Origin: a virus
Taxonomy: Duplodnaviria > Caudoviricetes
DNA: 47,372 bases
Reading direction: 5' to 3' (one strand)
Virus record (IMG/VR): IMGVR_UViG_3300042298_002142
Span: 1-47,372 of that record
The position numbers and the translations under genes were made by a program. Within the stretch, counting starts at the first letter, position 1; every line of letters begins with the position of its first letter. This document shows, piece after piece, positions 819 through 44,178 of the stretch. The notes under the pieces are model-generated. The model made no database searches. It saw nothing but the letters and a program-made list of their open reading frames with translations, and was not told where the DNA came from.

Positions 819-1303
819 AAAACCTGCACCCCAGCGAGAACAAATTCCACGTCGGCAACGGGGATGACGGGAAGCACTACTGGCTGACACCACCTGAACT
901 CTACGCAGAGTTGAACGCTGAGTTTCATTTTGACTTCGACCCGTGCCCCTGCCCAAAGCCTGACGATTTCGACGGGCTGACGTGTGAGTGGGGCAAGAGC
1001 AACTGGGTCAACCCGCCATTCGGCAGCATCATCCATGAGGGAAAAAAGAAAGGCCCGACCGCGTGGATGCGGAAAGCTATTGAAGAGCAGCAGAAGGGCA
1101 AACTGTCGGTGGTGGTCTATCCTGTGGACAAATGGGTGTTGATGATGCTCAAAGCCACGGGGGCGACGAACGTGCGCAACCTTGGAGACGTACGCTGGTG
1201 CGCCACGGAAGACGGGTCGCGGGGCAAAGGAACTGGACGGCACATCGCCATGTTCATCCTGCGCCCCGGAGAACCCTCCCCACCAGACGACTTCTGGGGC
1301 TAA
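815..1303 (+). CDS. Phage DNA N6-adenine methyltransferase (Dam-like)
   Basis: WLTPPELY..FDFDPC..WVNPPFG (NPPF catalytic motif); ATGA overlap with upstream gene; ends DDFWG. Confidence 0.8.
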   Translation: MKNLHPSENKFHVGNGDDGKHYWLTPPELYAELNAEFHFDFDPCPCPKPDDFDGLTCEWGKSNWVNPPFGSIIHEGKKKGPTAWMRKAIEEQQKGKLSVVVYPVDKWVLMMLKATGATNVRNLGDVRWCATEDGSRGKGTGRHIAMFILRPGEPSPPDDFWG

Positions 1304-1327
1304 CCCCTCATCTTTACACTTTCTTGA

Positions 1328-1342
1328 TTGACAACCTGTCAA
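1328..1342. promoter_or_regulatory. Palindrome TTGACA-acc-TGTCAA, possible operator overlapping a -35 box
   Basis: Perfect 6-bp inverted repeat in the intergenic gap before ORF 1365. Confidence 0.4.
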
Positions 1343-1364
1343 CCCCGTAGCACCGTCACACCCT

Positions 1365-1646
1365 ATGAGCGAACCACAAGCAAACCCACTCTTCCTCCGA
1401 CGCGCCCGCAAGATCAACACCATCGCCGAGGCCATTGACGGTGCGGCGGGGTACCTGAACAGCGGAGAGTTTGAACGGCAGGCGGCAGCCGCCTTCAATG
1501 GCAACTTCGGCCCCGAGCCGTTCGTCACCTTACAGATCACACTACGACGCGACCCCAAGCAGCCCGGCGCGTTTTCGTACCGCTGCAACACCAACGTCCG
1601 CCACGACATCGGCTCGGGCGTCAGCTTCTACGGACTTCAGCCATGA
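1365..1646 (+). CDS. Hypothetical protein
   Basis: ATG start, GC3-rich codons, ATGA overlap with next ORF. Confidence 0.7.
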   Translation: MSEPQANPLFLRRARKINTIAEAIDGAAGYLNSGEFERQAAAAFNGNFGPEPFVTLQITLRRDPKQPGAFSYRCNTNVRHDIGSGVSFYGLQP

Positions 1647-1957
1647 ACACGATCACACTCAAAGACACTGACGGCGGCGAGTGCCGCTTCACGCAAAACG
1701 AAGATGGGCAGGTTCGTGTGAAGTCGATAACGCTGGATGGAGTAGAGTACTCTGACATCGCCACCCCCGTTGAGGCAATGCTGTTCCAACGCCTGCTCGA
1801 ACTCTCGTGGGTACCCATCATCGAGCGCCTGCCCACGCGGGAAGACGCCAACGACTTTGCCGACGTGGAGTGGTCGGACGGCAAGCAGGTGTGGGAAGGC
1901 ACGTTCAACGAACTCCACGACACCGCAACCCATTGGAAGAGGATCGTGCTCCCATGA
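1643..1957 (+). CDS. Hypothetical protein (C-terminal WVPIIERLP..ATHW, DUF551-like)
   Basis: Coupled ORF; the W.P..ERLP...THW pattern is common in small phage proteins. Confidence 0.65.
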   Translation: MNTITLKDTDGGECRFTQNEDGQVRVKSITLDGVEYSDIATPVEAMLFQRLLELSWVPIIERLPTREDANDFADVEWSDGKQVWEGTFNELHDTATHWKRIVLP

Positions 1958-2169
1958 CCACCGACGAACATCTCGACAAAATCGTGGAGCGGTGCCGTTC
2001 TGTTGCCGCCACCCCTGAAATGCTCCTGGTCCACGCGATGTTCAGCACAACCATCGTCGCCATCGAAGGGCTGCGGCTCATCGCCAGCCAAGGGTCGCAC
2101 CCGGAGAGCAGTTCCGCCAAGTGCGACCTGCACAAGATCATCAATTTTTGGCCTGAAGAACTTCTTTGA
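1954..2169 (+). CDS. Hypothetical protein (MTTDEHLDKIV...)
   Basis: ATGA overlap at 1954; the longer track start at 1807 overlaps another gene. Confidence 0.65.
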   Translation: MTTDEHLDKIVERCRSVAATPEMLLVHAMFSTTIVAIEGLRLIASQGSHPESSSAKCDLHKIINFWPEELL

Positions 2170-2202
2170 CAGCCACACCATTCAACCTTACACATTAATA
2201 TA

Positions 2203-2427
2203 ATGACTGACCTGCCCCAAGACCCGCGCCTCAACCAAACCATACAGGCGTTCTCCGCCTACATGGCGGCATCCGAAGTGGCGCGAGTAGCCATCGGAGT
2301 GATTGAGGTGGCACTGAAAAAGGGGCTGCACCATTCCCGCCCATCGCTGGAGCAGGCTGTCCCGCTGCTCAGAGCGCAGTTGACCGACATCAGCCTGGGT
2401 CTCGACCCCAACACACCACCTTCATGA
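2203..2427 (+). CDS. Hypothetical protein
   Basis: ORF in tightly packed + strand cluster. Confidence 0.6.
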   Translation: MTDLPQDPRLNQTIQAFSAYMAASEVARVAIGVIEVALKKGLHHSRPSLEQAVPLLRAQLTDISLGLDPNTPPS

Positions 2428-2897
2428 AGATCCTCTGCATCCTCCAAAACCAATGGGCCAAAGATCCCGACCGGATTCTCGCCCTGCACGCCAAGCACCC
2501 CGGCAGGCGCAACGAGATCATCACGCGCATGTTGTTCCGTGAATCTCTGACTGGTCAGCGCATTGAGATGGTCTTTGGCGACCTGATGGAGCAGCACGCC
2601 TTTATCTTCGACGAAGCGTCCACCGTGGTCACGCCGTCCAGCAAAGGCAATCCGCCCTACAACGCCAACCACGTCCGCGAAACCATCACTCGCGTCCAGC
2701 CAGATGCCGTCATCACCTTCGGCTCGTCCTCGCGTCGGGCGGTGGAGGATGTGCGCAAAGCCAAACGTCTCAAGATCGACCTGCCTCCGGTGATTGAGTG
2801 TGTCCATCCCGCCATCCAGAAACCCACCTGGATGCGGCAGATGCTAGCCACCAAAGCGGCGCTCAAGGAAATCATTAAACGGCTGCAACCCGTATGA
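2424..2897 (+). CDS. Uracil-DNA glycosylase-superfamily-like protein
   Basis: ILCILQN N-terminal strand, S.TGQRI, QPDAVITFG..A and C-terminal HP resemble the UDG-like fold layout. Confidence 0.45.
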   Translation: MKILCILQNQWAKDPDRILALHAKHPGRRNEIITRMLFRESLTGQRIEMVFGDLMEQHAFIFDEASTVVTPSSKGNPPYNANHVRETITRVQPDAVITFGSSSRRAVEDVRKAKRLKIDLPPVIECVHPAIQKPTWMRQMLATKAALKEIIKRLQPV

Positions 2898-3632: not shown

Positions 3633-3847
3633 ATTTCAAACATTTCACATACACCTTCATCGGCGTCGTGTTTTTCAGTTTCGCCGCATTTGTCGGGATG
3701 TTCTTCCTGACCGTCCAACGCAGCAGAGAAGCAAATCGTGTTGCGTTGGACGTTTGGAATCGCACCCACCCTGAGATGCGCCTGACTCGTGAGGAGTTCG
3801 ACGCGCTCAGCAACAGGCGCATGCTGAATCTTAACAAATCCGACTGA
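3629..3847 (+). CDS. Hypothetical membrane protein
   Basis: TM segment FTYTFIGVVFFSFAAFVGMFFL. Confidence 0.65.
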   Translation: MNFKHFTYTFIGVVFFSFAAFVGMFFLTVQRSREANRVALDVWNRTHPEMRLTREEFDALSNRRMLNLNKSD

Positions 3848-4080
3848 TGCCCAACCCTCGCAAAAACCTCAAAGGCAAAACCTACGGCAGCCTCACCGTG
3901 CTGCGTCTGGCGAAGCCTGACAACAGCGGCAACACGCAATGGCTGTGCCTCTGCGACTGCGGCAAGGAAACCACCGTGCGCTACCAGCACCTTTACACCG
4001 GACGCACCAAGTCGTGCGGCTGTGGCAAGAAGCGCGGGCGCAGCCTGGACCCGCTCAGCGAGGAGGCGTTCTGGGGATGA
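3847..4080 (+). CDS. Stand-alone HNH-associated Cys4 DNA-binding module
   Basis: NLKGKTYGSLTVL..WLCLCDCG..TKSCGC is paralogous to the N-terminus of 24..818; no nuclease domain; ends EEAFWG. Confidence 0.7.
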   Translation: MPNPRKNLKGKTYGSLTVLRLAKPDNSGNTQWLCLCDCGKETTVRYQHLYTGRTKSCGCGKKRGRSLDPLSEEAFWG

Positions 4081-7492: not shown

Positions 7493-7495
7493 TTT

Positions 7496-8677
7496 ATGTC
7501 CAACCCTACCACACCCGACGCCCCTGAATCTGTTGATCTCGACATGGGGGGACTCGACGCCGCCCTGGCAACCCTCAACCCGGCAAACCCGCCGCCCGTC
7601 GAGGCCGCTCCGGTAACGCCGCCTGACGCCCCTGCGGACGCTCCGAAGCCTGCCGACGCAAAACCCGCCGACGAGAAGCCCAAGAAAGGTCTCGACGCGC
7701 TGCCCGGCGAAGCGGTTGAGGAGAAAAAGGAGGAAGCCAAGAAGGAAGAGCCTGTTGCCGAACCAGAGGTGGATACCTCCAAATGGGCCAAACCCCAGCA
7801 GCAGGCGTTCGCCGCCATGCGTGCGGAGAAGAAACGCGCCGAAGAAACGGCCCGCGATGCCCAGATCCGCTACGACAAGCTCCAGAAGGAGTATGAAGCA
7901 TTCAAAGCCACGCCGAAAGACAGCGAGGAGACTGCCAAAAAGCTCGCAGAACTGGAAACGTGGAAGCGTGCTCACGATTTGAAGAGCACTCCTGAGTGGG
8001 TGTCTGCCGTGGACACTCCCATCCAGCAAAGCCTTAGCCTGTTGGAGCGTATCGCCGGGCACGCCAAAATCGACGCCAAGGCGCTGATCGACGCCACGGA
8101 CGAACCTATCCAGTTCGAGCGCATTCTTGCCATCCGCGAAGTCTTCGAGGCGGCGGAAGAGCCGGTACCCGACACCCTCATCACCGCTGCCGTCAACGAG
8201 GCCGACAAGCTGCACCCGCTCTACGAGAAAGCGGCGAAGATGGAGAAGGAGGCCGAACAAACCCTCAACAGTCTCAACCATCAGACCGAGCAGCAGAAAG
8301 CCGCCGCCGCCAAGGCGGAGGAAGCCGCCTACCTTAAGCACCACGACCACATTTATGACCAGATGGTGAAGAAGCTGCCGTCGATCTTCAACAATCCCGA
8401 GGTCGCCGAGGAGATCAAGTCCGCTCGCCCGGCCACCGATCCAGCCGACAAGGCGTTCCAAGCCCAAGCCGCCGCCGCGCTTCCCACCATCGTCAAGGAA
8501 CTCTTTGCCGTCCGTGAAGAGGTGAAGAAGGAGCGTGCCGCCAAGCTCGCCCTGCTTAACACCCGTCCCGGCGTCAAGCCTTCCAGCACTCCTGTCCAGA
8601 AACCCGCCAGCCCGGAAGACGTGGAACTTGATGAAGAAGGGCTTACCGCCGCCCTGCGCGGGTTGAGGGCGCAATAA
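7496..8677 (+). CDS. Capsid scaffolding protein (putative)
   Basis: P/A/E/K-rich disordered N-terminus, coiled coils, position just before MCP. Confidence 0.7.
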   Translation: MSNPTTPDAPESVDLDMGGLDAALATLNPANPPPVEAAPVTPPDAPADAPKPADAKPADEKPKKGLDALPGEAVEEKKEEAKKEEPVAEPEVDTSKWAKPQQQAFAAMRAEKKRAEETARDAQIRYDKLQKEYEAFKATPKDSEETAKKLAELETWKRAHDLKSTPEWVSAVDTPIQQSLSLLERIAGHAKIDAKALIDATDEPIQFERILAIREVFEAAEEPVPDTLITAAVNEADKLHPLYEKAAKMEKEAEQTLNSLNHQTEQQKAAAAKAEEAAYLKHHDHIYDQMVKKLPSIFNNPEVAEEIKSARPATDPADKAFQAQAAAALPTIVKELFAVREEVKKERAAKLALLNTRPGVKPSSTPVQKPASPEDVELDEEGLTAALRGLRAQ

Positions 8678-10132: not shown

Positions 10133-10363
10133 ATGATCACGATCCCTGTCCCCGCCGAGTTTGACACCGCCTCCTACGAGATGGGCGTCCCCATTGAAGT
10201 CACCGCTACGGTCATCCTGACCGACAAAGGGATGGAGCTTCAAGCCATCGACGGCATGCCCGTCGAGTCCGAAGAAGCTCCTATGGAGGAAGCAGAAGAC
10301 CTAGAAATGGACGAGGCTGGGCTTGAACAGGCTCTTGGCCGCGCCCCAATGATGGAGGCATAA
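10133..10363 (+). CDS. Small acidic head-associated protein
   Basis: ATG 10133; C-terminal EDLEMDEAGLEQAL motif shared with the scaffold. Confidence 0.7.
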   Translation: MITIPVPAEFDTASYEMGVPIEVTATVILTDKGMELQAIDGMPVESEEAPMEEAEDLEMDEAGLEQALGRAPMMEA

Positions 10364-12063: not shown

Positions 12064-12597
12064 GTGAATCCACCACGCTATGACATGCAGCTTCCTAAAC
12101 TCACACCAGAATGGCAGGCGATCATTTTCGATGAGTCCCCCGCGCCAATGGCCCTTGTTACTGCTTGCCATCGCTTTGCTCGATGTAACGACGCATATTG
12201 TGCCCTGGTTGGTTACTCGCGTTCTGAACTTCTCTCTCGCACATGGCAGTCTATCACCGCAGGCGAAGACATTGACGGCGATTTACAGGGAGCCGAACAC
12301 CTTGCCGAGAACGACGACTCCCAAATCTATACCGTGGAGAAACGCTACCGAACCAAAGCAGGGCCGCTGGTATGGGTTAAGCTCCATGTTCGCGCTGTCT
12401 GGCTTGAAGGCCATTTCGAGGGCTACTACGTCACCGCCCTACCGCTCGACAAGCCAAGCTCTGCCACTCCCAAGTCTGTCGGCATCATCGAGTGGACGAA
12501 GAAAAACCCCAAAGACGCAACCATTGTTAGCCTTGCAGGAATCCTGCTACTCGGGCGAGATGATTTTGTCGAACTTCTGAAACTTTGGATCAAATAA
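12064..12597 (+). CDS. Stand-alone PAS/PAC-domain protein with hydrophobic C-terminus
   Basis: IFDESPAPMALV..RFARCNDAYCALVGYSRSELLSRTWQSIT..ED..YTVEKRYRTKAG..VWV is a canonical PAS+PAC signature; alternative ATG at 12085. Confidence 0.85.
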   Translation: MNPPRYDMQLPKLTPEWQAIIFDESPAPMALVTACHRFARCNDAYCALVGYSRSELLSRTWQSITAGEDIDGDLQGAEHLAENDDSQIYTVEKRYRTKAGPLVWVKLHVRAVWLEGHFEGYYVTALPLDKPSSATPKSVGIIEWTKKNPKDATIVSLAGILLLGRDDFVELLKLWIK

Positions 12598-17922: not shown

Positions 17923-18861
17923 ATGGACACCCGCCTCACACTCGCCGACGTTCGCCCGATTTTGGGGCCGATGATCAACTCGTCGGACCTGAATGACCCG
18001 TTGATCCTGCAAAGAATCAACGAGGGCGAGGAACGGCTCATCAACAGTGGTAAGTGGAAGGGCTGCATTGTCACCCTTCGGTTCGAGTCCTCCTCCGGGT
18101 TCGTCACGATGCCTTATAACTTTGCCGCTGCTTTGGCGTTGACGTATGACCGCTACCCTTTTCCCATCTTCACGCAGTTCCACCAGTACGTCGAAGAAGG
18201 TCCGGGCAAGATGGACGAGGCGCTCAACTGGCCCGGCATCCTCATCGACCTCGGCGACGGGTATTGCACACAAGCCGACATCCCGGCTGCGGGAGTCGTC
18301 CGCATCTACTCCTCGGCGCTCGACAACGGTGACGTGGTGCGTGTGTATGGAAACCTCAACGGTGTCACGGTGTATGATTCGAGCGGCAATGAAGGCGAAG
18401 CGGTGACGCTCGCCGCCCCGTTCGTCGCTACCACCAACCAGTTCACCGAGATCACCGGCTTCACCAAACCGCTCACCACGGCACGGGTGTATGCCAAAAG
18501 TTGGGACGGTGTCACTGAGACGTTGGTGGGAACCTACCAGCCGAACGAAACGAGGCCGTGCTATCGTCGCTACCAGACCGGAGTGGCGGAGAAAGAAATC
18601 CGTCTCATCTGCCATCGCCGGTTCATCCCCACGGTTGCTGAGACCGACTGGATCATTCCCGGCAACATCTCTGCTTTGCGAGCGATCATACAGTCACTCC
18701 TCTTTGAGGATGCTTCCGACATGGACGCTGCCGACGCCTCATTTGCCAGAGCCATCAGTTTCCTCAACGACGAGGCCAAGACTTTCCGTGGAGGCGGTCG
18801 CGCCACTCTCAACACCAACCCGACTCCGTGGACAGCCACACTGAGCCAAAACGTGACCTGA
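17923..18861 (+). CDS. Head-tail adaptor / tail tubular protein A-like
   Basis: LTLADVR..ILQRINEGEERLI..W.G N-terminus and a helical C-terminus, typical of podoviral adaptors. Confidence 0.55.
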   Translation: MDTRLTLADVRPILGPMINSSDLNDPLILQRINEGEERLINSGKWKGCIVTLRFESSSGFVTMPYNFAAALALTYDRYPFPIFTQFHQYVEEGPGKMDEALNWPGILIDLGDGYCTQADIPAAGVVRIYSSALDNGDVVRVYGNLNGVTVYDSSGNEGEAVTLAAPFVATTNQFTEITGFTKPLTTARVYAKSWDGVTETLVGTYQPNETRPCYRRYQTGVAEKEIRLICHRRFIPTVAETDWIIPGNISALRAIIQSLLFEDASDMDAADASFARAISFLNDEAKTFRGGGRATLNTNPTPWTATLSQNVT

Positions 18862-23600: not shown

Positions 23601-26600
23601 AACGCTAAAGGTGAACTGGCTAACAAAGCCAAGTTCGTGTATGACAACGCTTGGAAGTGGCAAGGTGCGCAGCGCAAGGTTCAGATGACCGAAGCGCAGA
23701 AAGACCGTTTGAAGTCTCTCACTCGCAACGTTAAAAAAGCTGAAGAACTCTTGAAGAGTGAAAATGTTGAAGTCGCGAAAGTGATAACCGATGAGCAACC
23801 AACTTCGCTGGCTGAAGCAGGTCCACCTGCTGCGGAAATGAAGACCCCCTCTGCGACGGCAGATCAGCCAGCCCCAATTTCTAAGGAAGAACCTACCAAT
23901 ACTCAGCGTGGACAGCGAGGGCGTGTGGCTGTTGGCGTACCACCCCGCGATACTGGAGCTACTGATACCCCTAAAAGACCCTCGCTCGGAAGCACCGGAA
24001 AACAAATCATCGACGCTTGGCGATCCCTTCAAGGAGTACAAGTCGCCCCCGGAGAAACCGTTGTCGGGTGGGACGTAAACGGAGGAGGAACCTATGCCTT
24101 CATCAACAATAAACTTGTCAAACTGAAGAGAGACAACAAGGGTTTCGAGTCCACTTACACCGACGCCACTGATGCGGACTGGCAAGAGGTCAGTGATGCG
24201 CTTGACCGTGGTGCTCTCCAAGTGGAAGTACGGAAGATCACAGGGTTGGGTAACTACCCAAAAGTAGATGCAGGTAAGACTGTCAAAGTTCTTCACCAAG
24301 CTACTGGGAAACCTCTGCAAGAGTTTCTGGATACACCAGAAGGGGCAGCCTATGAAGCCCGAATGCAGAAAGCGGTTGCTGAAAGAGGCCCGAAAGAGTC
24401 CCCTGCCCCACAGGCCCAGCAGCCAGCGCCCCAGCGTGACACGTCGAAGCCAGAGCAGATGACGCCGGAGGAGTTTGCCTCTTCTGAGCGCGACCCTGAA
24501 CTGCCAAAGAACTATGTGCTTTCAGATGGCAACGGCAATTTTGTAACCGAAGAGAAGAATGGATGGTTCAGAGTTTGGAGGCTGACAGGTACGCACGCAA
24601 CATTGGCGGGAACGGTAGGCTTCAAAGGCGCTGAAGGGCTAGCCAAAGCTAAGGCACGTCTGAAAGAAGTCAGCGCTGAGAGGCACGAAGAAAAGCTACA
24701 GAATGGTCTTCGCACAAAGAAACCAGTCTCCGCCGCCGCCGTTGACGCCTACGGAATCAAGCTGCCAGAAGGCTACGTCAAGCAAGGCGACCTTTACATC
24801 TTTCAGCCTTCGTCAGAGAAATCTGACTTGGGCGCAGGTGCCGCTACAACTCCTTCAACGGAGCCATTGAAAGTAACAACACCGGAGGCTGGAAAATCTC
24901 CCCAAACCGCAAAGGTAGCCACCGAGTGGACGCCAACCGTCAATGCTCCTGCCGCTTTCACCGCCAATAACGGACAGAAACTCGTAGGCACCGTGCAGTC
25001 GATTGAGGGCGGTAAAGCCGTCGTGAGCTTCTCGTGGAACGGCCAGACTCAGAAGGCGACCGTTCGCCCTGATCGCCTTTCCAGCCCGGTTGCCTCGCTC
25101 ACTGATCCGCCGCGATACCAATACACGCAGGAGCAGAACACGCGAAAGATGGCGAAACACTTCCCATCGGCTCCCGGTGTTCACGCCAATCACGACTTCC
25201 GCAAGTCCTTCGCCTCCATGGCAAAGGACGCGTCGTTGTCGCGCATCTACCGGCAGATCGCCAAGGAGCTGTCGAAGATGTCCGCGTTCGCGAACGTGGA
25301 TCTTCACGTCGTCGCCGACGAGAACACGCGCTACGCAGGCGAGTATTCCCACAGCAACGGCAAGTCAGCCATCGCGGTCAACCTGCGGCAGGTCGGACGT
25401 GGCATGGTCGATGCCCTCGGCACCATCCTGCATGAGGCGCTTCACCACGTCACACTGGCGAAGGTGCGCGATCCGCAGGGGGCTTGGGAGAACGAAGTCT
25501 TTAACAAGCTCGACACCATCCGCGAGAAGGTGTTGGAGTATGCCAAGGAAAAAGGTCTATACGATAGGCTGGACTACGAGCTTGACACTGTGGAGGAGTT
25601 CATCTCTGCCCTCACCAACCCCAACTTCCAGAACTTCCTCGCCTCGATCCCCGACAGTTTCTCGACTGGTGTGTCTGTGGGCAAGTTCCGCTCGGTGCTC
25701 TCCGAAGTGTTCCGCCTCATTGCCGAGTGGATCAAAGGCGAGCCGGTTGCCAGGGGCAGCACGATGGAGCAATACTTTACGACCGTGCTCGCGACCTTCG
25801 AGACTCCGCACCGCGCCTGGGACACGGGCAAGTTGGAAGCGTTGAACGCGGTGCAGAGCGGGGCACAGCAGGCGACTCCCGAGTCAATCCGTCACGCCGA
25901 GTTGGAGGCCAAGTTCAACGCCGGAACGATCACGCCTGAAGAGACTGCGGAGGCGCGGCGGTTGGTGGGTGAGCGGGCGAAGGCGGCTGGGTATGACGTG
26001 GGACCGGTGTACCATGGTACAGAGCAGAAAGGTTTGACCGAGTTTTACGGCGGTTGGTGGTCTGACACAAAGAAGGTCACACGCGAGTTTGGTTCTCAGA
26101 GGTATTCAGCATATTTGAAGGGGCCGCTAGCGGATGGAGATACTCTTCGACAGCTTTACAAAGAGTACAACGGCACTGACATCGACCAAGACTCGGATGA
26201 GCCTCTGTACGATAGCGAAATTGGGGATGCCGCCATGGCTGGTTCTAAGTTTCAAGAACTTGTGCGCAGCAAGGGATACCAAGGAATAGAGGTGTGGGAT
26301 GAGAGCAACGCCGAGACAGGGATGGCTTACGCTGTTTTTGAACCGAACCAAATCAAATCCGCCGACCCCTTCACCGGGGTTCCGCTCGACCAGCGTTTCG
26401 ATGAGAAGTCCAACGACATCCGGGCATCCCGTGCCGAGGGCAGAGGATACCGCTCCCCCACCGACATGCTCGCGGAGGCAGCGCAGAAGGCCAGAGGTGA
26501 AACCGTGGGAACCAAGCCGCAGGGACTCGCCAGCATGTTCAACCCGCAGGCCAAACGCCCGGCCACCGGGGAGCGCAAGTTGCTGGACATGCCACAAACT

Positions 26601-29600
26601 ATCAATCTGCCACAAGCTGATAGCAAACTGATAGCAAACGCCTATCGCGAGGCCGTGCGTGGCTCCAGCACGCAGATGGCTCCGCTCTCCACCGTCTATG
26701 CGCAGGCTCGGCTGCTTCAACCCGGACTCACGCCCGAGACGTTCTTGGCACAGGTGCAGGAAGGCTACGACAACGGCACGCTGTTGCTCGAAGGCGCGGG
26801 CAGCCAGCAAGAAGCCGCACAGTCCAGCCTATCGCTGCCGGGTACTCCCGTGGGAACGGCTGTGCGTATGATGCCAGCACCGCAGGGGACGTTGAAGAGT
26901 AAGGCCGACGACGGCGAACCACCTATCATCGACATCGGCGGCGAAGCAGAACCTGCGGACGGTCCTGAGTTTGCCTTCACTCGCGCTCGCTTTGCTCCGC
27001 CAAAACCGGAGGACCAAATGTATCAAGTCCATTCGGACGAGGAAGCTACCAAGAAAGCCTTTGCCTGGATCAACGCCGTTGGCCCACTCCGGGCTGCCGA
27101 CCTGTTGATGGCAGACCGTGCGCCGAGCGACATGGACCTCAACGTGAAGAACATCGTCATGGGTGGTCTGCTCAAAGGTTTCACAGAGATTTCGATAGAC
27201 CCCAACGCCAGTGAGGACGAGAAAACGGTCGCACGCGCCACCAATCAACGGCTTGGGAAGTATCGAGTACGGATGAACCAAGACGCCGCCCGTGGCATGC
27301 GTCAGATTGGAGTGCAGAACGGTGCAGTGCTTCAACTCATCGCCCCTATTCTTGCAGTGGAAGAGGTGCTCGCAGATCACGGAGAGAAGATTCTGGAGGA
27401 TCAGTTCGAGGGAGGATCGGAAGGTGCGGCTCCGCGAGTAGCCGGTGCTGCCGAGACGGCCACTGCCGAAGCCGACGAACGATTGGAGAACATCATCCGT
27501 CGATTGATGGGCAGCCTGCGTCCAAAGCAAACCTCTGTTGGTGCGCTCGCCCGCATGTTCCGTGGTATGGGACAGCGTGACCAGATCATCGACGAAGTAG
27601 CCAAAGCCTTGATGCTCAAAGCCCGTGGCAACGTGGTCGCTCCCGAACGGAAGACCGCGCTTGCCAATTTGGTGAGCAGCCTTAAAAGCACTCTCGCAGC
27701 CAGTGTGAAGGGTGAGAAGAAGCCCGCGCCCGAGCGCACGCTGCAAGACCTGCTGACCAGCGCATTCGTCAATCAGGTGTCTGAGGGTCCGGCGTTTGAA
27801 TCAGCGTGGAAAGAGGGTCGTCAAAAAGTGCTCGACATGCTGATTGATATGGAGTTGGACAAAACTTTCCATCCAGCCCAAAAGCGTCTGGCCGATCTTC
27901 GTGCCAAACTCACCTATTTGGAGGCTGGAAGTGCCGAACAGCAGGAAGCCAGTGCCGCAGAACGCGCTCAACTCGCCGACCAGATCAAGGTTGCCAAGGT
28001 GGAAACGAAAGCCGCTATGGATGCGGTCAAGGCAATGACGCCTCAACTCGAAGCGCAGCGCGATGCGTTGATGCCCGCCGCTCCAACGGTGGCGTTTGAC
28101 CCCGTGTCTTCCCGTGAAGCGATTGGCCGTGCATTTGAGAAGGCAGGTTACACCGCCGACTTGGCAACGGGTCTGGACAAGTCCGGCAAACGCACTCTCA
28201 GCATCAAAGACGCGCTGCTCAACCGTCAACGCGCCGCTGACGCCGTGATAAAAGTGTTCGACGCGGAGATGCAAGTCCCGGACGCCGCGACTCAAAACGA
28301 TTGGCCGCAAGCCCGCGCCCTTGCACTCAAGGCGGTCAACGAGACTCTCGACTCGTGGCAGGCGCAGACAGACGCCGACAAAGTGGCGAAGCTAGAAGCC
28401 GCCAAGCAGAGTCTTCTCAGCGAGGACTCCAAAGCTCTTGAGAAGCTGGTTAACTCCATCCGCAATAGAATCCTCCCCGACTCAGATTGGTCTGACATTC
28501 TCTACGACCTGCCGCGCACACAGGCGGAACGTCTTGCCGCCATCAAGGACCGTGTCGCCAAACATGAGGCACTGAAGAACCTCACCCCGGATGAGTCGAA
28601 AAAGTTGGCGGAGAGCATCGACAAACTGTGGCAGCGCGAAAGACTCAAAGCGTTCCAAGACGAACTCTTCAAAGCTGGCGTCCTGAAAGCCAAGACCACC
28701 AAGGCTGTTGCGAACGTGGCGTCTGCTGCTCCCGAGCTTCTCCGACTCATGAACCTGGGAGTGTTCAACTCCAGCACTTTCCGCGAAGCGATCTCCAAAC
28801 GGTTCGGCTTGAAGCTCCTGACCGGCGTTCAGGCCGATGCTTTGCGCAAGCTGGCAGCCGAAGCGTGGGGCAGTCCCCAAGGCGTCCTGCGCAATCAGAA
28901 ACTCGGCCAATTGGTTGAAGGCATCCAGCACGCCACTGGTGCGAACTGGGCAGACGTGATGAACTCCTACTGGATCGCCAGTGTTCTTAGCGGTTTGCGC
29001 ACTCACTTCGACACCTGGGGAGGTGTCGTGAATGGTCTCGGCACCAACCTCATTCAAGCAGGAGTCCAACTGTCGAAGGGCAGAGGGGTTGCCGCTTTCG
29101 ACATCCAGGCTCAATGGTGGAAAGGATTGTTCACCGGACTCAATGAAGCCCTGTATCTCCTGCGCACCGGAGACCCCTCATTCACCAAGCGTTTTGAGGC
29201 CGATCTTATCGACGCTCTGAATGGCGAGAAGACCGCGCACCCCATTGCCATCGGCGAGAAGATGTGGAAAAGCGGCAGCCTGCTCCAGAAGATTCCCGGC
29301 GCTCTGATGATGGTGGTCGGTCGTAGCATGGTCGCCGCCGACCACGTGAACAACACCGCCACCACGCAGGGAGCGATGGCCGTGGCTCGGGCGATGAATC
29401 CTGAGCTTTATGAAGGCAAGACATCTTGGACTCAGAAGGAGATCGCCGACGCTCGCAAGCAGGCGATTGCCGAGGCCACGGCAGGAGCGGAACCCGCGAC
29501 CAAATTTGAACGCATGCTGGTCGCCAAGCGCACTCGCGAAATTCTTAACGCCGGGCTGACCGAGGCAGACCAGATGGCTGCTTCTGAAGTAGGAGACATC

Positions 29601-30869
29601 GCCGCATTCCAGAACGATCCGACGGGGTTGTTTGGCGGACTCTACCATGCGGTTAAGTCAGGCTTGTCTTCCGCAGTCCGCAGTCTGGACCAAGTTGCAC
29701 AAGATGAGGAAGCTGCCAAGATCACGCGAGCGTTCGCCGCAGTGACGGCAGGCAGCGTCCACGCCCTCACCGGCACGAGGTTCATGCGCTTCGGCTTCAA
29801 CCTCGGCAACGAGTTCATGCGCTACATGCCCGGCTCGTGGCTGCTGAACAAAGGCACCAACATCCTCGGCAGCAAACTCAGCCCGATGCAGCAGGATATG
29901 CTGATTGGTAAGAACGTGGTCGGGGGCATTCTGCTTGCCACTCTCTATTCTCTGTTTGGAGACGACGACGAATCCGAGGACGGCAAGTGGCACATGGAAG
30001 GTCCGTGGAACGATCTCAGTCTCGGTGAGCAGTCTTCCCGCCTGAGCGCGGGATTGGCGAAGAACTCCTTTTGGCGCAGGAAAGACGGCAAGATTGAGCG
30101 CATCAGCTATGCACAATGGCCGACTGCCGGACTTCTAGCCGCTGTGGGAAGCATGCTCGACGAGAAACGCTACAAGCCTGAAGACTGGAATCAGCGCGGA
30201 GTAGCGGGACACATTCTTCAAGGCGCTGTCACTGGGCTGTTTCAAGTCCAAGATGCTGCCGCCATGCAGCAGGTTGCCGAACTTTTCAGCACCTCGTCCT
30301 CGTACGGGGCGGCACAAGGGATGCCGGAGAAAGTCATTAAAATGGGTACGAACTACCTTGGGGGTCTGGTACCCACATCCGTCAAAGATTTGGACAAGTG
30401 GCAAGACCCACGCAATTTCCGGGCAGACGGCGTCTGGGAAAAGCTCGTCCGCGAGATGCCTGTCGCACGTCGATTTGTCAACGATGGGCGTCCGCAGTTC
30501 AACCGCATCGGTCAAGATGTCCGACTCCACCGCGAGCCTTACAGCCGTCTCTACACAACTGACGAAGCAGACAAGGCGACTGTGGCCTACGGGCAGTTAC
30601 TCGCGAGGGGTATCGACTTTCCTACACCGAGCACCAAACGTCAGATCATCAAGGACGGCAAGAAGGTGCCTATGGACACCCTCGGCAAAGGAGTTACTTA
30701 CGACTTCGAGAAAGCGGTCGCTCTCAGCTATGGCAAGTTCTTGCAGGAGAACGGCGAGCGGATCACAGGAATGTCCACCAAGGCGCTCGACAAACTGATT
30801 CGTGATCGGGCCACGCGCATCCTCGACATCGAGACCCGCAAGGTTCAAGCGAAAGTCAACAACCCATGA
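20601..30869 (+). CDS. Giant polyvalent virion/ejection protein (3422 aa) with lyase-like, zincin and ADP-ribosyltransferase-like domains
   Basis: G/A-rich N-terminus; GWKLHLSV..FTVYVG (~22143); HEALHH (25431-25448); VYHGT..GYQGI..YAVFEPNQIKS (26007-26360); helical C-terminal region. Confidence 0.75.
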   Translation: MADTPSWLAEYPEAAEKDWLNEYPEAKDEPFFDLSDTLSAAGQAVTGLPTTVPRAFRQLYEGLENPWERGEGYLKSQEAADAYQQELEAANLEAEKSGDISTMSRGMRQAGQSLGFSAGAMGAGLIASTPSAAAGRTIGGLAGPEGAVAGEIIGRGAGALASGYGAAYRMAGAQFLDDARKEIDAKFLQVTGELPNEQQQEEAYQELLPLAQAFGHAEAGPEAIGNLAMAGAGKYVFGLGRKTIEKLAASALGKTGAAAGALGTELAGETITGVEQNRIDSQKKDILEGRDPSELPSREMEDYLKSFKEVAPATLATMGLMSVAPATVKAASLIRGKPAEAAPTDDFAQRAAMEGAVGEATPVEVEGVVIATIPPESDMTPEDVLDFANSPEDMAMLARNGKITLPEVVEPIDGVDPAITEEMDARLAEGKASGLADQTLAELERQKAAQGAPAPTAEAPAPTAPVELPDVESGIIDARIDLPRLQAAIQQKPDGKTSGPRVTDVVANNDFAKNGGWKLHLSVTPENYQAVDEWLHKNHKGQYKLLSGGSPEEGSDFTVYVGHKDAANDLASKIESEIGNLLNPFESGPAKDAQFNAKVGGRFDVARTGNIKDVPWNYAGMSGVPFDETAMEAINNIGEAPKTREQFAAKAAPEIERINKQLVAKYGDRYTGSKTPAPVAEAPAPTAETLGVTAPLAPTLETPEGAARNADMLRQAAARVAGTERGPRVGLIPQPSVKLNLTPDETSGTGAAMKEENQQTESGVVHKAAVLSSINSKSSVSAEAVDTYKIALPEGYVKQGDLYVFKSPAATEGAVMPGGSAPAPATTLSRGKPRESIVFKTPVKTPLGEVVGYSWSSQLVEDVDNMGEPVLRRISNWEEATNNAETGRDIVHKFLIRKPDGTTSEVSLESTFGKMTDSDKKTIKAVVSAAKRLPFMRAELAELQDLQKQAEADYQRTQKLTPDPTKLELREPDVKWRAEKGDKVAYLGGVFIGFVESGNINAKGELANKAKFVYDNAWKWQGAQRKVQMTEAQKDRLKSLTRNVKKAEELLKSENVEVAKVITDEQPTSLAEAGPPAAEMKTPSATADQPAPISKEEPTNTQRGQRGRVAVGVPPRDTGATDTPKRPSLGSTGKQIIDAWRSLQGVQVAPGETVVGWDVNGGGTYAFINNKLVKLKRDNKGFESTYTDATDADWQEVSDALDRGALQVEVRKITGLGNYPKVDAGKTVKVLHQATGKPLQEFLDTPEGAAYEARMQKAVAERGPKESPAPQAQQPAPQRDTSKPEQMTPEEFASSERDPELPKNYVLSDGNGNFVTEEKNGWFRVWRLTGTHATLAGTVGFKGAEGLAKAKARLKEVSAERHEEKLQNGLRTKKPVSAAAVDAYGIKLPEGYVKQGDLYIFQPSSEKSDLGAGAATTPSTEPLKVTTPEAGKSPQTAKVATEWTPTVNAPAAFTANNGQKLVGTVQSIEGGKAVVSFSWNGQTQKATVRPDRLSSPVASLTDPPRYQYTQEQNTRKMAKHFPSAPGVHANHDFRKSFASMAKDASLSRIYRQIAKELSKMSAFANVDLHVVADENTRYAGEYSHSNGKSAIAVNLRQVGRGMVDALGTILHEALHHVTLAKVRDPQGAWENEVFNKLDTIREKVLEYAKEKGLYDRLDYELDTVEEFISALTNPNFQNFLASIPDSFSTGVSVGKFRSVLSEVFRLIAEWIKGEPVARGSTMEQYFTTVLATFETPHRAWDTGKLEALNAVQSGAQQATPESIRHAELEAKFNAGTITPEETAEARRLVGERAKAAGYDVGPVYHGTEQKGLTEFYGGWWSDTKKVTREFGSQRYSAYLKGPLADGDTLRQLYKEYNGTDIDQDSDEPLYDSEIGDAAMAGSKFQELVRSKGYQGIEVWDESNAETGMAYAVFEPNQIKSADPFTGVPLDQRFDEKSNDIRASRAEGRGYRSPTDMLAEAAQKARGETVGTKPQGLASMFNPQAKRPATGERKLLDMPQTINLPQADSKLIANAYREAVRGSSTQMAPLSTVYAQARLLQPGLTPETFLAQVQEGYDNGTLLLEGAGSQQEAAQSSLSLPGTPVGTAVRMMPAPQGTLKSKADDGEPPIIDIGGEAEPADGPEFAFTRARFAPPKPEDQMYQVHSDEEATKKAFAWINAVGPLRAADLLMADRAPSDMDLNVKNIVMGGLLKGFTEISIDPNASEDEKTVARATNQRLGKYRVRMNQDAARGMRQIGVQNGAVLQLIAPILAVEEVLADHGEKILEDQFEGGSEGAAPRVAGAAETATAEADERLENIIRRLMGSLRPKQTSVGALARMFRGMGQRDQIIDEVAKALMLKARGNVVAPERKTALANLVSSLKSTLAASVKGEKKPAPERTLQDLLTSAFVNQVSEGPAFESAWKEGRQKVLDMLIDMELDKTFHPAQKRLADLRAKLTYLEAGSAEQQEASAAERAQLADQIKVAKVETKAAMDAVKAMTPQLEAQRDALMPAAPTVAFDPVSSREAIGRAFEKAGYTADLATGLDKSGKRTLSIKDALLNRQRAADAVIKVFDAEMQVPDAATQNDWPQARALALKAVNETLDSWQAQTDADKVAKLEAAKQSLLSEDSKALEKLVNSIRNRILPDSDWSDILYDLPRTQAERLAAIKDRVAKHEALKNLTPDESKKLAESIDKLWQRERLKAFQDELFKAGVLKAKTTKAVANVASAAPELLRLMNLGVFNSSTFREAISKRFGLKLLTGVQADALRKLAAEAWGSPQGVLRNQKLGQLVEGIQHATGANWADVMNSYWIASVLSGLRTHFDTWGGVVNGLGTNLIQAGVQLSKGRGVAAFDIQAQWWKGLFTGLNEALYLLRTGDPSFTKRFEADLIDALNGEKTAHPIAIGEKMWKSGSLLQKIPGALMMVVGRSMVAADHVNNTATTQGAMAVARAMNPELYEGKTSWTQKEIADARKQAIAEATAGAEPATKFERMLVAKRTREILNAGLTEADQMAASEVGDIAAFQNDPTGLFGGLYHAVKSGLSSAVRSLDQVAQDEEAAKITRAFAAVTAGSVHALTGTRFMRFGFNLGNEFMRYMPGSWLLNKGTNILGSKLSPMQQDMLIGKNVVGGILLATLYSLFGDDDESEDGKWHMEGPWNDLSLGEQSSRLSAGLAKNSFWRRKDGKIERISYAQWPTAGLLAAVGSMLDEKRYKPEDWNQRGVAGHILQGAVTGLFQVQDAAAMQQVAELFSTSSSYGAAQGMPEKVIKMGTNYLGGLVPTSVKDLDKWQDPRNFRADGVWEKLVREMPVARRFVNDGRPQFNRIGQDVRLHREPYSRLYTTDEADKATVAYGQLLARGIDFPTPSTKRQIIKDGKKVPMDTLGKGVTYDFEKAVALSYGKFLQENGERITGMSTKALDKLIRDRATRILDIETRKVQAKVNNP
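21957..22660 (+). repeat. 35-bp direct repeats (21957-21991 and 22626-22660) flanking an AT-richer cassette
   Basis: cctgccccc(ac/gt)tgccgaagcacccgcccccactgc, 2 mismatches. Confidence 0.85.
22936..24803 (+). repeat. Diverged ~80-bp direct repeats (22936-23015 and 24724-24803)
   Basis: Encode VSAEAVDTYKIALPEGYVKQGDLYVF and VSAAAVDAYGIKLPEGYVKQGDLYIF. Confidence 0.85.
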
Positions 30870-32051: not shown

Positions 32052-33275
32052 TCAAGCCTCCGTGATCGGGATGGTGTTCTGCACCCAGCCAGCTTTGGCT
32101 ACGGCATATCCGTTGATCGAGAACGTGCCGATGAGGTAGGCCACATCAACTTCCAGCTTCTCCGCCAAGTCGTTGACGCGCATCTTCTTGCCACCGAGGG
32201 CGGCTTCGATGTCGGCGCGGGTGATTTTCTTGACGGGTTTGACCTCGGGGGTTTTGATCTTCACCTCCTCGGGCAACTCGGTAACAGTGACGACGGGTGC
32301 CTTCGTGACGGTGTGAGCCGGAGGCTCGGGAGCCTTCACTGGGATGACCTCGGTAGGCTTCTCATCGTCGCCCCAGAAGGCGTCATCTTGGGCCGGGTTC
32401 GTGGCAGCCTCGACCACGTTTTCTGCCGCCTGCCGAAAGGACTCGACATCCACCTCAACAGTAGTCGTCTCCACGCTCCAACCGCTTCCCAACGTCCGCG
32501 CTTTTTCCCCACGTCCCAACACGATGTCAGCCAGCGACCCGTCTTTGCAGCCATGCACCAGCACGGCCTTGGGGCTGACGACACCACCGCGAGGACGCAC
32601 CACACGGCTGCCGTGATCCACGGACTCACAGACGAGGTTGGTTCCTTCCATGTGGTAGTTCTGCGTGGACCACATGTCGCTGATGAGTTCGGTGTGCGAC
32701 ACGCCGATGTTGCGGATAGGCCAGCGAAGGTACACGTCGAACGGTTCACGCGGGTTCATCGTGTAAGGTTTGGCGAGATCGAGCAGCAGCGGCTTGATCC
32801 GTTCGTCCTTCTCCATGTTGGCGGGGTAGATGCCGGTGCCCATCATCATCTGATCGCCGTCCTTGTAGGCGATCTGTCCGTTCACGTTGAACGGCGTGTT
32901 GACGAGGACGCCACGGAACGGGGTGCCGCCGTAGCGGTAGTCCTCGAACAGGGCGACCGCCCAGCGCGGCTTCACCGGCAGCATGTCTAACTCCATCCAC
33001 AAGAAGGGATCGGTATTGCCCATCTTGGCGAGTGCGAAGACCACGCTGGCGAAGTGTCGGTTGCAGGCGACAGGCGCTCCACCCTCGAAGTCCTGAGTCA
33101 GCGGGTAGGTTTCCGCGCCCAGACGCTCGGCATGCTCATAGGCGGTGTCCTTGGCGGCAGGTGTGGGGAAGAAGATGACGGGATGCTCTTCCAACCCGCC
33201 GAGCTTGAGCAGGCATTCGGTGAGGTCGGGCAGCAGGTGCTTGTCGTGGGCGGATACGGGGATGGCGATTTTCAT
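32052..33275 (-). CDS. GT-A-like glycosyltransferase-like protein with acidic linker and C-terminal HTH-like domain
   Basis: MKIAIPV N-terminal strand, FLWMELDMLP (DxD-like), VHGCKDGS; C-terminal RVNDLAEKLEVD. Confidence 0.5.
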   Translation of the reverse strand: MKIAIPVSAHDKHLLPDLTECLLKLGGLEEHPVIFFPTPAAKDTAYEHAERLGAETYPLTQDFEGGAPVACNRHFASVVFALAKMGNTDPFLWMELDMLPVKPRWAVALFEDYRYGGTPFRGVLVNTPFNVNGQIAYKDGDQMMMGTGIYPANMEKDERIKPLLLDLAKPYTMNPREPFDVYLRWPIRNIGVSHTELISDMWSTQNYHMEGTNLVCESVDHGSRVVRPRGGVVSPKAVLVHGCKDGSLADIVLGRGEKARTLGSGWSVETTTVEVDVESFRQAAENVVEAATNPAQDDAFWGDDEKPTEVIPVKAPEPPAHTVTKAPVVTVTELPEEVKIKTPEVKPVKKITRADIEAALGGKKMRVNDLAEKLEVDVAYLIGTFSINGYAVAKAGWVQNTIPITEA

Positions 33276-41656: not shown

Positions 41657-41677
41657 GGTGTTTGTATGGTTAAATGT

Positions 41678-43120
41678 TCATCCCCAAAAATCTTCTTCGT
41701 TGAAATCCGGTTCTTCGGCTGGCTTGACGCTCAAACCGACATCGCGGGAGCTTTCTAGCATCATGAGCGCGGACAAAAGCCTGTCCTCAGTGTCGCGTTT
41801 GTCCTCCAACACGGTAGCGATAGCGTCGTCCACGGTGCCGGGGCACATCAGGCGGTACACGTCCACGTTACACACCTGACCGGGACGTGCCAGACGAGCG
41901 AGCATCTGGGTGTATCGGCGGTGGGAATAGATGAGAGACATCCAGACCATGGTGCTGCCACCCCACTGCATGTTCAGCCCGTGGCTGGCGGAGAAGGGGG
42001 ACACAACCAAGATGGGTATCTCTTTGCGGTTCCACTCAGCCAGCATCTTCGTTTGCGCTGCAAGGGTGGTGGCGTCGGCAAAGAACGTGGCGTTGGGGAA
42101 CGCTTCTCGCAACCGGGCCTGCTCGTGCTTGAAGATCGCGGCCACCAGAACCGGCCCTTTGGTCTTCTTGATGATCTTCCTGAGAGCGTCAATCTTGAGA
42201 TCGTGGATGCAGTGGTAGGTGCCGTTTTCGTCGTACACTGCGCCGCTGGTGTATTGCAGTAGCTTGGTCACAAGGGCTGCCGCGCTGGGGGCTGTGATCG
42301 TTACCGAGCTTTTCAGTTCCAACACCAACTCCCGTTCAAACTCCTGATACTTGGAAAGTTGATCCGGTGTCATGTGGACATCCACATCCTGCACCACCGC
42401 GTCCGGCATGTCAGGCATCCACTCAGAAGCTCGCAACGTGATGGTGATGTCACAGATGCGTTTCTCAATCAGTTCCTTCGCCCCGTCGTTGGCGTCCCAC
42501 TTGTATCCCATGTAATCGGCTTTGTGGAAGTAGGTGGACTTGAAGTGCTGGAAGCTGCGGCCCAGTCGTTCTCCACCATCTAGCAGACGGAACTGTGCGA
42601 ACAAGTCCACCAGCTTGTCCATAGGAGTACCAGTCATTCCGATGCGTCGTCTCACTTGGGGGGCTTCTCGGCGTAGCAGGGCTATGCGCTTCGAGTCAGG
42701 GGATTTCGCGGAATCAACTTCATCGTACACCACGGTATCGTAGGGCACGGTGCCTCCTCGCTTCTCGATCAACTTCACCAACAGGGGGATGCTGTCGAAG
42801 TTGATTAAATATATGTCTGCCCTACCGGCGATGAAGGCTTGACGACCAAGAGGTGTGCGCAGGTTGGCAACTTTGAAATTCTTGAAATCCGACCACTGTG
42901 AAATTTCAAGAGGCCAGACCAAATTCGCCACACGGAGAGGCGCTATCACCAACATTCCAATGGTGTCGAGCGACGAGTGCCACTCTTTGAAAGCACTAAG
43001 CACCGCCGCCGTCTTCCCGAGACCCATAGAAATGCTGCCATAAACCACGTCATGCGACAGCATGTGGTCGATGAAAGCCTTCTGCGCTGGGCGTGGGGAG
43101 AACTTGCTCACGCCCTCCAC
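41678..43120 (-). CDS. SNF2-family helicase
   Basis: MGLGKT, VIAPLRVA, VVYDE, MTGTP, HGLNMQ, ARLARPGQ; ends EEDFWG; start may be GTG 43111. Confidence 0.9.
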   Translation of the reverse strand: MEGVSKFSPRPAQKAFIDHMLSHDVVYGSISMGLGKTAAVLSAFKEWHSSLDTIGMLVIAPLRVANLVWPLEISQWSDFKNFKVANLRTPLGRQAFIAGRADIYLINFDSIPLLVKLIEKRGGTVPYDTVVYDEVDSAKSPDSKRIALLRREAPQVRRRIGMTGTPMDKLVDLFAQFRLLDGGERLGRSFQHFKSTYFHKADYMGYKWDANDGAKELIEKRICDITITLRASEWMPDMPDAVVQDVDVHMTPDQLSKYQEFERELVLELKSSVTITAPSAAALVTKLLQYTSGAVYDENGTYHCIHDLKIDALRKIIKKTKGPVLVAAIFKHEQARLREAFPNATFFADATTLAAQTKMLAEWNRKEIPILVVSPFSASHGLNMQWGGSTMVWMSLIYSHRRYTQMLARLARPGQVCNVDVYRLMCPGTVDDAIATVLEDKRDTEDRLLSALMMLESSRDVGLSVKPAEEPDFNEEDFWG

Positions 43121-43425
43121 CCCTCCACCGTGCGATACTCAATAGGACGACCGGCAAGCTGCGCTGCACGAACACCAAACTCCATGCCGCGACTGATGCC
43201 GCAGTCGGTGTACACGACGGTCTTGTCCGCTTTCCACGCCAGTCCTGCCGCGATGCCCATGGCACGGTCGGTCGGGTCTTCGTCGTCAAGGACTTGGGTG
43301 TAGAGCAGGTGGCTCACCATCGGCGCTTCGCCGCGCAACAGCGAGTCGCGCATGGCGGCACGGGCGTAGCGGATATTGCGTTGCAGGTTGCCTGCGTAGG
43401 GCGATTCGAGGATTACGGTGGTCAT
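43108..43425 (-). CDS. Conserved phage protein (nucleoside deoxyribosyltransferase-like fold)
   Basis: VILESPYAG..NIRYAR..GEAPMVSHLLY..GISRGMEFG. Confidence 0.65.
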   Translation of the reverse strand: MTTVILESPYAGNLQRNIRYARAAMRDSLLRGEAPMVSHLLYTQVLDDEDPTDRAMGIAAGLAWKADKTVVYTDCGISRGMEFGVRAAQLAGRPIEYRTVEGWRA

Positions 43426-43426
43426 G

Positions 43427-43873
43427 TCAGAAAGGGTCTCCTTCATTATCTGCTGCGTGCTGTCGTGCGCCGATCTTCGCATCAACGAACCGTTGCCGAC
43501 GTTCCGCGTGCTCTTTCTCCACGTTCTCCGTGCATGTGAGCACCTGGATGTTGTCCTCCTCGTAGCCACGGGTGCTGTCCTTGCGGTCGATGTGCAGACA
43601 GAATCGCTCCTTACCCTTCTCGTCCATGTAGCAGGTCGGCAGGATGGCGGCTTTGAACTGATCGAAGGTCAAGGTGAAGGCGATCTTGCGCTTGCGAGCG
43701 GATGCCCGGAGGTTGTCGAAGGCACAGTGAACGGGGTTGTTCAAACGCCATTGCTGCTTGGCGTGGGAACCGCAGAGCTGCGTGGAGGTAGGATGGTCGG
43801 ACAGGTTGCGCGGCACACCTTTGCACCGGCTGACGGGGCAGCGACCAGGGATTTTGATTTTGCGCAGTTTCAT
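43427..43873 (-). CDS. HNH-like endonuclease
   Basis: RKRKIAFTLTFDQF..LHIDRKDSTRGYEEDNIQVLTCTEN. Confidence 0.7.
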   Translation of the reverse strand: MKLRKIKIPGRCPVSRCKGVPRNLSDHPTSTQLCGSHAKQQWRLNNPVHCAFDNLRASARKRKIAFTLTFDQFKAAILPTCYMDEKGKERFCLHIDRKDSTRGYEEDNIQVLTCTENVEKEHAERRQRFVDAKIGARQHAADNEGDPF

Positions 43874-44178
43874 CCCCAGAACCCCCTAGGGCTTATCAAG
43901 CCATCCACGAAGTCTTTGCCGTCCGACACGTTGTCGCACCAGCCTGTGTTGGCACCCACCTTCGCCAGCAGTTCCATTTCTGCTTCCTGTGCCTTGGTCG
44001 GCTTGCACCCACCGCGCTTGATCTCCAAAAAGCCGACCACCCCGCCCGGCGCAATGATCAGACGGTCAGGCACCGAACGGTTGTTGGGTGAGACGAACTT
44101 GCGGACGTAGCAGCCTTTCAACTTGGCGTAGTCGCAGATTTTTTTCTCGATCTCCTTTTCGAGGGGTGGGGGTTTCAT
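43870..44178 (-). CDS. VRR-NUC domain nuclease
   Basis: EKEIEKKI..KFVSP..VPDRLII..FLEIKR..PTKAQ; ends GFWG. Confidence 0.85.
   Translation of the reverse strand: MKPPPLEKEIEKKICDYAKLKGCYVRKFVSPNNRSVPDRLIIAPGGVVGFLEIKRGGCKPTKAQEAEMELLAKVGANTGWCDNVSDGKDFVDGLISPRGFWG

Follow-up and report, generated by a model that had tools for sequence, protein, structure and literature searches.

A shared acidic-aromatic tail on unrelated DNA-acting proteins of a phage family, rewritten between lineages

Introduction

Short tails that bring DNA-handling proteins together are known from several systems. The accessible parts of the respective reports describe tails of T7 gp4 that bind gp5 (PMC12593628), C-termini of T4 gp43, gp55 and gp33 that bind the gp45 clamp (PMC2988020), and a tail of the Enc34 SSB (a protein binding single-stranded DNA) that sits in the groove of its neighbour (PMC5686142). 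Beyond phages, the parts available of two further reports present the RPA70N OB fold as a reader of loose acidic-hydrophobic motifs carried by over 20 partners (PMC10479964), and condensates of bacterial SSB into which the SSB tail peptide is taken (PMC7584906). Here we describe a tail ending in Phe-Trp-Gly-stop (FWG) on unrelated DNA-acting proteins of an uncultured phage, IMG/VR record IMGVR_UViG_3300042298_002142, a linear virus record of 47,372 bases that was analysed at its full length (the window), together with its counterparts in related phages.

As far as the accessible text of PMC12593628 and PMC5686142 allows comparison, the closest likeness is to T7 gp4 and gp2.5, which share the acidic, flexible tail with an aromatic tip, and a PolA, a T7-type SSB and a primase-helicase are present here too. 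Unlike in T7, however, the tail is carried by about ten unrelated proteins (clients), including methylases and the small terminase, and it changes genome-wide between lineages. Moreover, in the lineage with FW tails the SSB ends in IDDM and the primase is untagged, and PolA is doubtful as the reader of the tail. T4 gp45 likewise serves a hydrophobic-acidic C-terminus common to unrelated proteins, but the sequence differs, the clients are more numerous here, and family scans of 50 open reading frames of the window and 62 proteins of relatives (mostly from the complete G010) found no clamp or clamp-loader gene, which leaves room for a remote homologue. How the replication module is organised without a known clamp is the question on which the tail bears.

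RPA70N, in the parts of PMC10479964 available, offers the parallel of an SSB-type OB fold as the proposed hub for acidic-hydrophobic motifs, although it is a eukaryotic, dedicated protein-binding domain, whereas here a single OB fold binds single-stranded DNA as well and its hub role is putative. The bacterial SSB C-terminus (SSB-Ct) is likewise an acidic-aromatic end, which binds the OB fold as well as organising DNA metabolism (PMC7584906, in part). There, one tail meets many pockets, whereas here many tails meet a presumed single pocket. The SSB-Ct tip is of the D-x-P-F type, and the bacterial beta-clamp consensus is QL[SD]LF. Our tags end FW-x, and a [DE]PF end is confined to the Endonuclease VII-like proteins; similarly, a profile of 29 tags has no Gln or Leu positions. 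A C-terminal degron or PDZ-type ligand fits no better, as a free C-terminus is not required and conserved internal copies exist. The principle is thus known from T7 and T4, while a tail on about ten DNA-acting proteins that is rewritten per lineage was not found described in this module in the literature searched, most subscription papers lying outside that search.

FWG ends in the window

An acidic-Phe-Trp(-Gly) end is a real feature of unrelated DNA-handling proteins. Six-frame translation of the window yields seven copies of FWG, four of them directly before a stop (1292-1300 and 4069-4077 on the + strand, 41681-41689 and 43873-43881 on the - strand) and a fifth in frame inside a 407-residue protein (32370-32378, -), which confirms the four ends and the internal copy reported by an earlier sequence-only reading of this DNA; the other two, out of frame at 17960 and antisense at 7117, are background. 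The tagged ends belong to a Dam-like methylase (DDFWG-stop, 1286-1303, +; gene 815-1303), a stand-alone Cys4 domain protein (EEAFWG-stop, 4060-4080, +; gene 3847-4080), an SNF2 helicase (DFNEEDFWG-stop, 41678-41704, -; gene 41678-43120) and a VRR-NUC nuclease (RGFWG-stop, 43870-43887, -; gene 43870-44178), the last of which has no acidic residue adjoining FWG. The internal copy, DDAFWGDDE, lies at 32361-32387 (-) in the acidic linker of the GT-like/helix-turn-helix (HTH) protein (gene 32052-33275). Among 55 window genes, picked by hand, 0.003 FWG ends are expected, and any one tripeptide would end four of these genes with a chance of about 8e-6, in agreement with the earlier judgement that four identical termini are unlikely to be accidental.

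Pfam matches bear out the names Dam-like (PF05869, E 2.5e-6, slightly below the curated cut-off) and SNF2 (PF00176) given to these proteins by the earlier reading, while VRR-NUC is named from its phrog_93 match only, with no Pfam match, and the label GT-like is weakly supported. The Cys4 protein corresponds to the N-terminal part of the phrog_374 HNH family and matches the HNH protein of the window at 47%. In a structure model of SNF2, the tag lies on a low-confidence tail past the last helix, with a predicted local distance difference test (pLDDT) score under 50 at residues 457-476 and 478-480, and residues 869-878 of a modelled primase from a sister lineage with FC tails also fall under 50. 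Neither tail docks onto its own protein in these single-chain models, which do not address oligomers.

Selection on the peptide

The same reading had proposed that selection acts on the peptide, and a nucleic-acid signal would have been indicated by conservation of TTYTGGGG regardless of frame. Seven genomes yielded 52 non-redundant TTYTGGGG sites. Of these, 37 stand in the reading frame of a called gene, whereas 4 lie in another sense frame, 6 are antisense and 5 are outside gene calls, three of these five falling in overlapping methylase frames missed by the gene caller. The codon variation noted earlier (TTC/TTT, GGC/GGA, TAA/TGA) is as described and extends further, since 21 tags use TTC (10) or TTT (11) for Phe, all four Gly codons and all three stops, and third codon positions of the tag vary as the codons permit. 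Because of the frame bias of 37 to 4 and the varying synonymous codons, the tag is, as judged from sequence, kept by selection at the peptide level. This is also favoured by six records in which Cas4 lost its tag with no insertion: TTGAC is retained there, while the FW codons are intact in one and decayed or gone in five.

Which proteins carry the tail

The FWG-stop pattern matched 7 of 14 related records, at most nine times each, and its reversed control gave no match. In five of them (G003, G005, G010, G012, G013) the tagged proteins are SNF2, VRR-NUC, small-terminase-like, HTH and small repressor-like proteins and the Cys4 protein, and further the GT-like protein, Dam, N6/N4 methylases, a C5 methylase, a PAPS-reductase-like enzyme and a weakly MutS-I-like protein; a Cas4-like DUF2800 nuclease is tagged in G010. 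The repressor-like and HTH labels are our reading of the sequences. 'MutS domain I-like' proved a weak label (E 0.45 to MutS structures, E 0.009 for one of ten members, atlas blank). Across lineages, the client set comprises the SNF2 helicase, VRR-NUC, the Cas4-like nuclease, the small terminase, several methylase families, HNH-type proteins and small DNA-binding proteins, which have unrelated folds and are encoded on both strands and in several operons.

Conservation of the tag in relatives and its absence from most outgroup homologues, as the earlier reading had supposed, was found in comparisons of SNF2, VRR-NUC and Dam. The 120 SNF2 homologues (the window's own included) comprise 27 with FWG, 26 of these among the best 37, 7 with FWx, 7 with DFC, 19 with an acid-W end and 60 that end otherwise. 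VRR-NUC homologues end in FW plus zero to two residues in 63 of 86 cases, and in 62 of the nearest 66; the residues before FW vary among them, and many tails keep FW without acid. DFWS and QDFC are the ends of Cys4 homologues from sister lineages. The internal copy of the GT-like protein is in frame in G003, G005, G010 and G012, conserved in-frame internal copies lie 2-110 residues before the protein end, and the residue after FW is free to vary (G, D, E, K, R, A, S, V).

In 8 of 10 genomes (G028 and G029 were left out as the block was mis-delimited), a terminal tag occurs on 0 of 218 virion-block genes as against 59 of 450 other genes, a count to be read in the light of the kinship of these genomes and of tag patterns set after seeing the data. 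A motif scan of the whole collection gave mostly chance matches: the match closes a frame of at least 90 codons in 26 of 26 family loci versus 6 of 66 others.

The small-terminase-like protein (L030:10767-11381, L024:8327-8869) also has the sequence QIQLSLF about 25 residues before its tag, which we take to resemble a beta-clamp motif and which may instead be an oligomerisation strand.

Tails change in concert between lineages

Sister loci collected via helicase and terminase alignments were compared along with further records. Largely the same clients carry other endings there, giving six tag classes (FW, FC, WI, IW, WD, DF) in one family. Tails of the [DE]FC or [DE]IC type occur in G015, G018, G021, G023, G024 and G027, [DE]W[IV] and xFV tails in G017, G026, G034, G043 and G029, an IW tail in G028, a WD tail in L263 and a DF tail in G019. 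In G015, FC ends the primase, Cas4, a methylase, VRR-NUC and SNF2 together, and the clients of G043 (WI/WV), G028 (IW) and G019 (DF) similarly agree among themselves. Core genes that are far apart and on both strands thus switch tails together, with diverged synonymous codons. The earlier idea of a phage-specific tag therefore holds in that the tag is real, but it is broader than supposed: FWG is the form that the tail takes in one lineage, and many genes change their tails together.

A permutation test of end dipeptides gave a significant result for 18 of 26 records; the other eight have split endings (G020, G018), are fragments (G017, G011), lack the replication module (G014, G032, G007) or have a non-aromatic tail that is invisible to this test (G006). 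No repeated tail is seen in G014 and G032, family members that lack the replication module. PolA, the large terminase and a small XRE protein are untagged in every lineage row tabulated, and the primase is tagged in FC, WI and IW lineages. These lineages make an unusually clear case, as the residues are rare and the swaps between FW, FC and WI are natural.

A second, sub-terminal motif common to SSB and Cas4 also depends on lineage, being of the DFAG[VI]DL type in FW, VFSDE in FC and FDDE in WI genomes. The Endonuclease VII-like gene of the window (43427-43873, -) has a lineage-invariant tail of its own, [DE]PF-stop, which is found in nearly all lineages whatever the tag class and which resembles the host SSB tip or SSB-Ct consensus.

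Cultured phages outside the family

Counted by matches to its Cas4-like gene, the replication module is present in about 1,500 records of cultured phages. Ten cultured phages with the same replication module were examined, and five have a shared tail, judged by eye, on at least three proteins: BPP-1 (DLV-like), 13AC503A and JS26 (EEL/DDL-like), V11 (DLLG) and BL94 (ending in V). SETP3 has one on two proteins. In JS26 and V11 both SSB and primase are tagged. The JS26 polymerase, which has no blastp match to PolA and in our own reading of its sequence shows family B-like motifs, itself bears the local tail. Ruegeria phage V11 and Caulobacter phage BL94 are cultured phages whose hosts are harmless, and they open shared tails to direct testing. 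The SSBs of SETP3 and of rolling (L405, L409) have arginine-rich tails, and the primase and Cas4 of these phages have acidic ones.

Gain of the tail by incoming genes

Among 120 Dam homologues at 77-96% identity, one ends in FWG, one in DDFC and 118 carry no tag, and the Dam fold in the homologues ends about ten residues earlier than the tag. Because 118 of 120 are untagged, the tail has been gained on arrival in this family. In G013, both overlapping frames of an inserted C5 methylase, which are arranged like M.EcoHK31I as far as the accessible part of PMC2836561 describes it, end in FWG, the two copies being 29 nt apart. Furthermore, near-identical ends of 24-28 nt flank inserted methylases in G013 and G005, and an inserted PAPS-reductase-like gene of G013 has the tail where Cas4 has it in G010. 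Some tag gains (G013, G005) are explained by insertions that duplicated the gene end. Such insertion does not account for the Dam of the window, as the matching G013 site, which has no Dam gene, offers no FWG sequence for copying, nor for the concerted switch of core genes. The tail shows how a mobile gene could be wired into the machinery by a few codons.

One Dam homologue is labelled Verrucomicrobiota, which is too little to assign a host, and a search of GTDB genomes for capsid or terminase relatives returned none.

A probable shared docking partner and its candidates

We think it probable that the tail is a selected short linear motif that docks unrelated DNA-acting proteins on one shared partner at replicating phage DNA. 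Peptide selection, the client set, the concerted lineage change and the gain by new genes are demonstrated; from them we infer docking and a pocket, and a single reader in particular because the tail is flexible and found on DNA-acting proteins only, is acquired by newcomers and switches jointly across genes. Its two aromatic residues would enter a hydrophobic pocket, with the acidic run on a basic rim and the rest of the tail acting as a flexible tether. Phe-Trp would form the core, and the last residue and the acidic run would be tunable. In this way helicase, nucleases, methylases and small terminase would come together at the sites where fresh DNA is synthesised, methylated, resolved and passed to packaging, and selection would retain new copies of the tag, part of which would stem from insertions that duplicate their target site. 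The shared tail would accordingly name the members of a machine and tie methylation and packaging initiation to replication.

Several observations weigh against this reading. Sixty of the 120 SNF2 homologues fall outside every tag class, 4 of the 10 cultured phages show weak or no shared tail, clear target-site duplications exist, and the small repressor-like and HTH clients have no obvious role at the fork. In the lineage of the window, SSB and primase lack FWG, and so does Cas4 in 9 of 12 records. Moreover, SSB and PolA each come in two types inside the FW clade, at about 44% identity, while the tag is unchanged. In the SSB tree, G029, with a WV tag, groups with FW SSBs, and G018, with an IC/FC tag, groups with WI SSBs.

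As for the reader, we tentatively rank the phage T7-type SSB first, slightly ahead of PolA. In the window the SSB is of the T7/Enc34 type and cut by the record end (47060-47372, -), with a tail of its own, SIDDM; it is present wherever the region is covered, and its tail is related to the tags and weaker. PolA, of the SPO2 type (family A; 44413-46461, -), is a rather doubtful second candidate: its tree fits the tag classes and it is never tagged in this family, but it is absent from JS26. The SSB is preferred because JS26 keeps its tails with a polymerase that lacks a blastp match to PolA and is itself tagged. A host replisome protein is about as doubtful as PolA. Cas4 (at least 70% identity within FW) and the primase (at least 66%) track the tag best, yet they are clients themselves, and either Cas4 or the primase-helicase is an unlikely reader.

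More speculatively, phages with the PolA-SSB-Cas4-SNF2 module might use a private, fast-evolving address code, in which one phage-encoded socket reads the tail of replication, recombination, modification and packaging-initiation proteins. If so, incoming genes would join the network via three to eight residues, and each lineage would rewrite plug and socket together, insulating it from co-infecting relatives. To the known systems this case adds the clarity of rare residues, six tag classes, gain by mobile genes and polymerase-swap evidence against a simple T7 reading.

Alternative explanations

The tail could instead be a degron, an option the sequence-only reading had raised, or a handle for an unfoldase, by which DNA-bound proteins would be cleared ahead of packaging or their turnover timed. 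The clients are nearly all DNA binders, repressor-like proteins included, most copies stand at the very end, and some FC genomes have DAA at the ends of SSB and its neighbour, which we take to resemble ClpX-type ends. This explanation is weakened by the in-frame internal copies up to 110 residues from the end and by the free variation of the last residue, and no protease or unfoldase gene turned up in scans of the 50 window frames and 62 relatives' proteins. Acidic ends, furthermore, usually block C-terminal degrons, and we regard the degron as unlikely.

A role as an intramolecular DNA mimic, damping each protein's own DNA binding with no common reader, would suit the basic DNA-binding surfaces of all clients and the Enc34 SSB, whose tail governs DNA selectivity (PMC5686142, in part). 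It would leave the joint change of hydrophobic residues across unrelated proteins unexplained, as well as the FW kept without acid in many VRR-NUC tails, and is accordingly quite improbable.

Only a little less probable is a functionless tail, left by passive copying of the last 20-30 bases when genes insert at a gene end. The near-identical ends around inserted methylases and the position of the PAPS-reductase-like tail favour such copying; as the sole cause it is largely refuted by the Dam-less G013 site, by distant core genes that switch together with diverged synonymous codons, and by the retention of FW in 62 of 66 VRR-NUC homologues whose preceding residues vary.

TTYTGGGG might also be a DNA or RNA signal, either a promoter-upstream element or a translational-coupling cassette, with the peptide as a by-product. 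The earlier reading noted that two copies lack an overlapping downstream start; in fact, three of the four tag stops in the window overlap an ATG, the one at the helicase stop opening a frame of just three codons here and serving in G005, G012 and G013 as the start from which the next gene is called. FW ends overlap ATGA or TTGAC in 45 of 58 cases. TTGAC overlaps are enriched (11 of 28 tagged FW ends versus 16 of 324 untagged ends), which speaks against a constraint on the peptide only, and the supposed absence of an overlapping DNA signal is not fully borne out. In addition, TTTTGGGGTTGAC is retained behind the Cas4 stop in G005. On the other side, besides the frame bias, ATGA overlap is at background level (10 of 28 tagged versus 118 of 324 untagged ends), 0 of 29 FC tags overlap either sequence, the 11 TTGAC cases are mostly orthologues, the motif precedes merely 0-3 of the 117-171 TTGAC sites per genome, and a Shine-Dalgarno-like sequence lies upstream of 31 of 251 starts only. 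We read the TTGAC overlap as double coding at some operon ends, and a nucleic-acid signal as origin of the tail is very improbable.

Equally improbable is a capsid-targeting signal by which methylases and replication starters would be injected with the DNA: several methylase families gain the tail and the virion block encodes a 3,422-residue protein, but small terminase, resolvase-type nuclease and repressor-like proteins would be unlikely cargo, no virion-block protein has a terminal tag, and G014 has the same capsid and terminase families and no tag.

Other features of the window and its relatives

The window is estimated to be 72% complete; its + strand encodes a virion block and its - strand a replication/modification arm. 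A promoter-like site, TTGAC...TATAGT, with a 20-nt spacer that is longer than the usual 17, lies 3' of the MutS-like gene and is conserved in G003 (near 30140), G005, G010 and G012. Behind the Dam gene, an inverted repeat, TTGACA-ACC-TGTCAA (1330-1345), is possibly an operator or a divergent -35 pair. A tRNA-Ser that ARAGORN places antisense to the polymerase gene (46170-46263, +) is probably spurious.

Within the virion block, the 3,422-residue protein (20601-30869, +) has an ART-PolyVal domain at residues 1803-1922, and its counterparts in relatives range from about 2,000 to 4,500 residues. A PAS-domain protein is encoded within the virion/lysis block (12085-12597, +). Finally, a scaffold-like protein (7496-8677, +) and a small protein encoded after the capsid gene (10133-10363, +) have a common near-terminal motif, [LM]DE[EA]GLxxA[LM], which is present in G010, G011 and G012 too and is possibly a capsid-binding helix.

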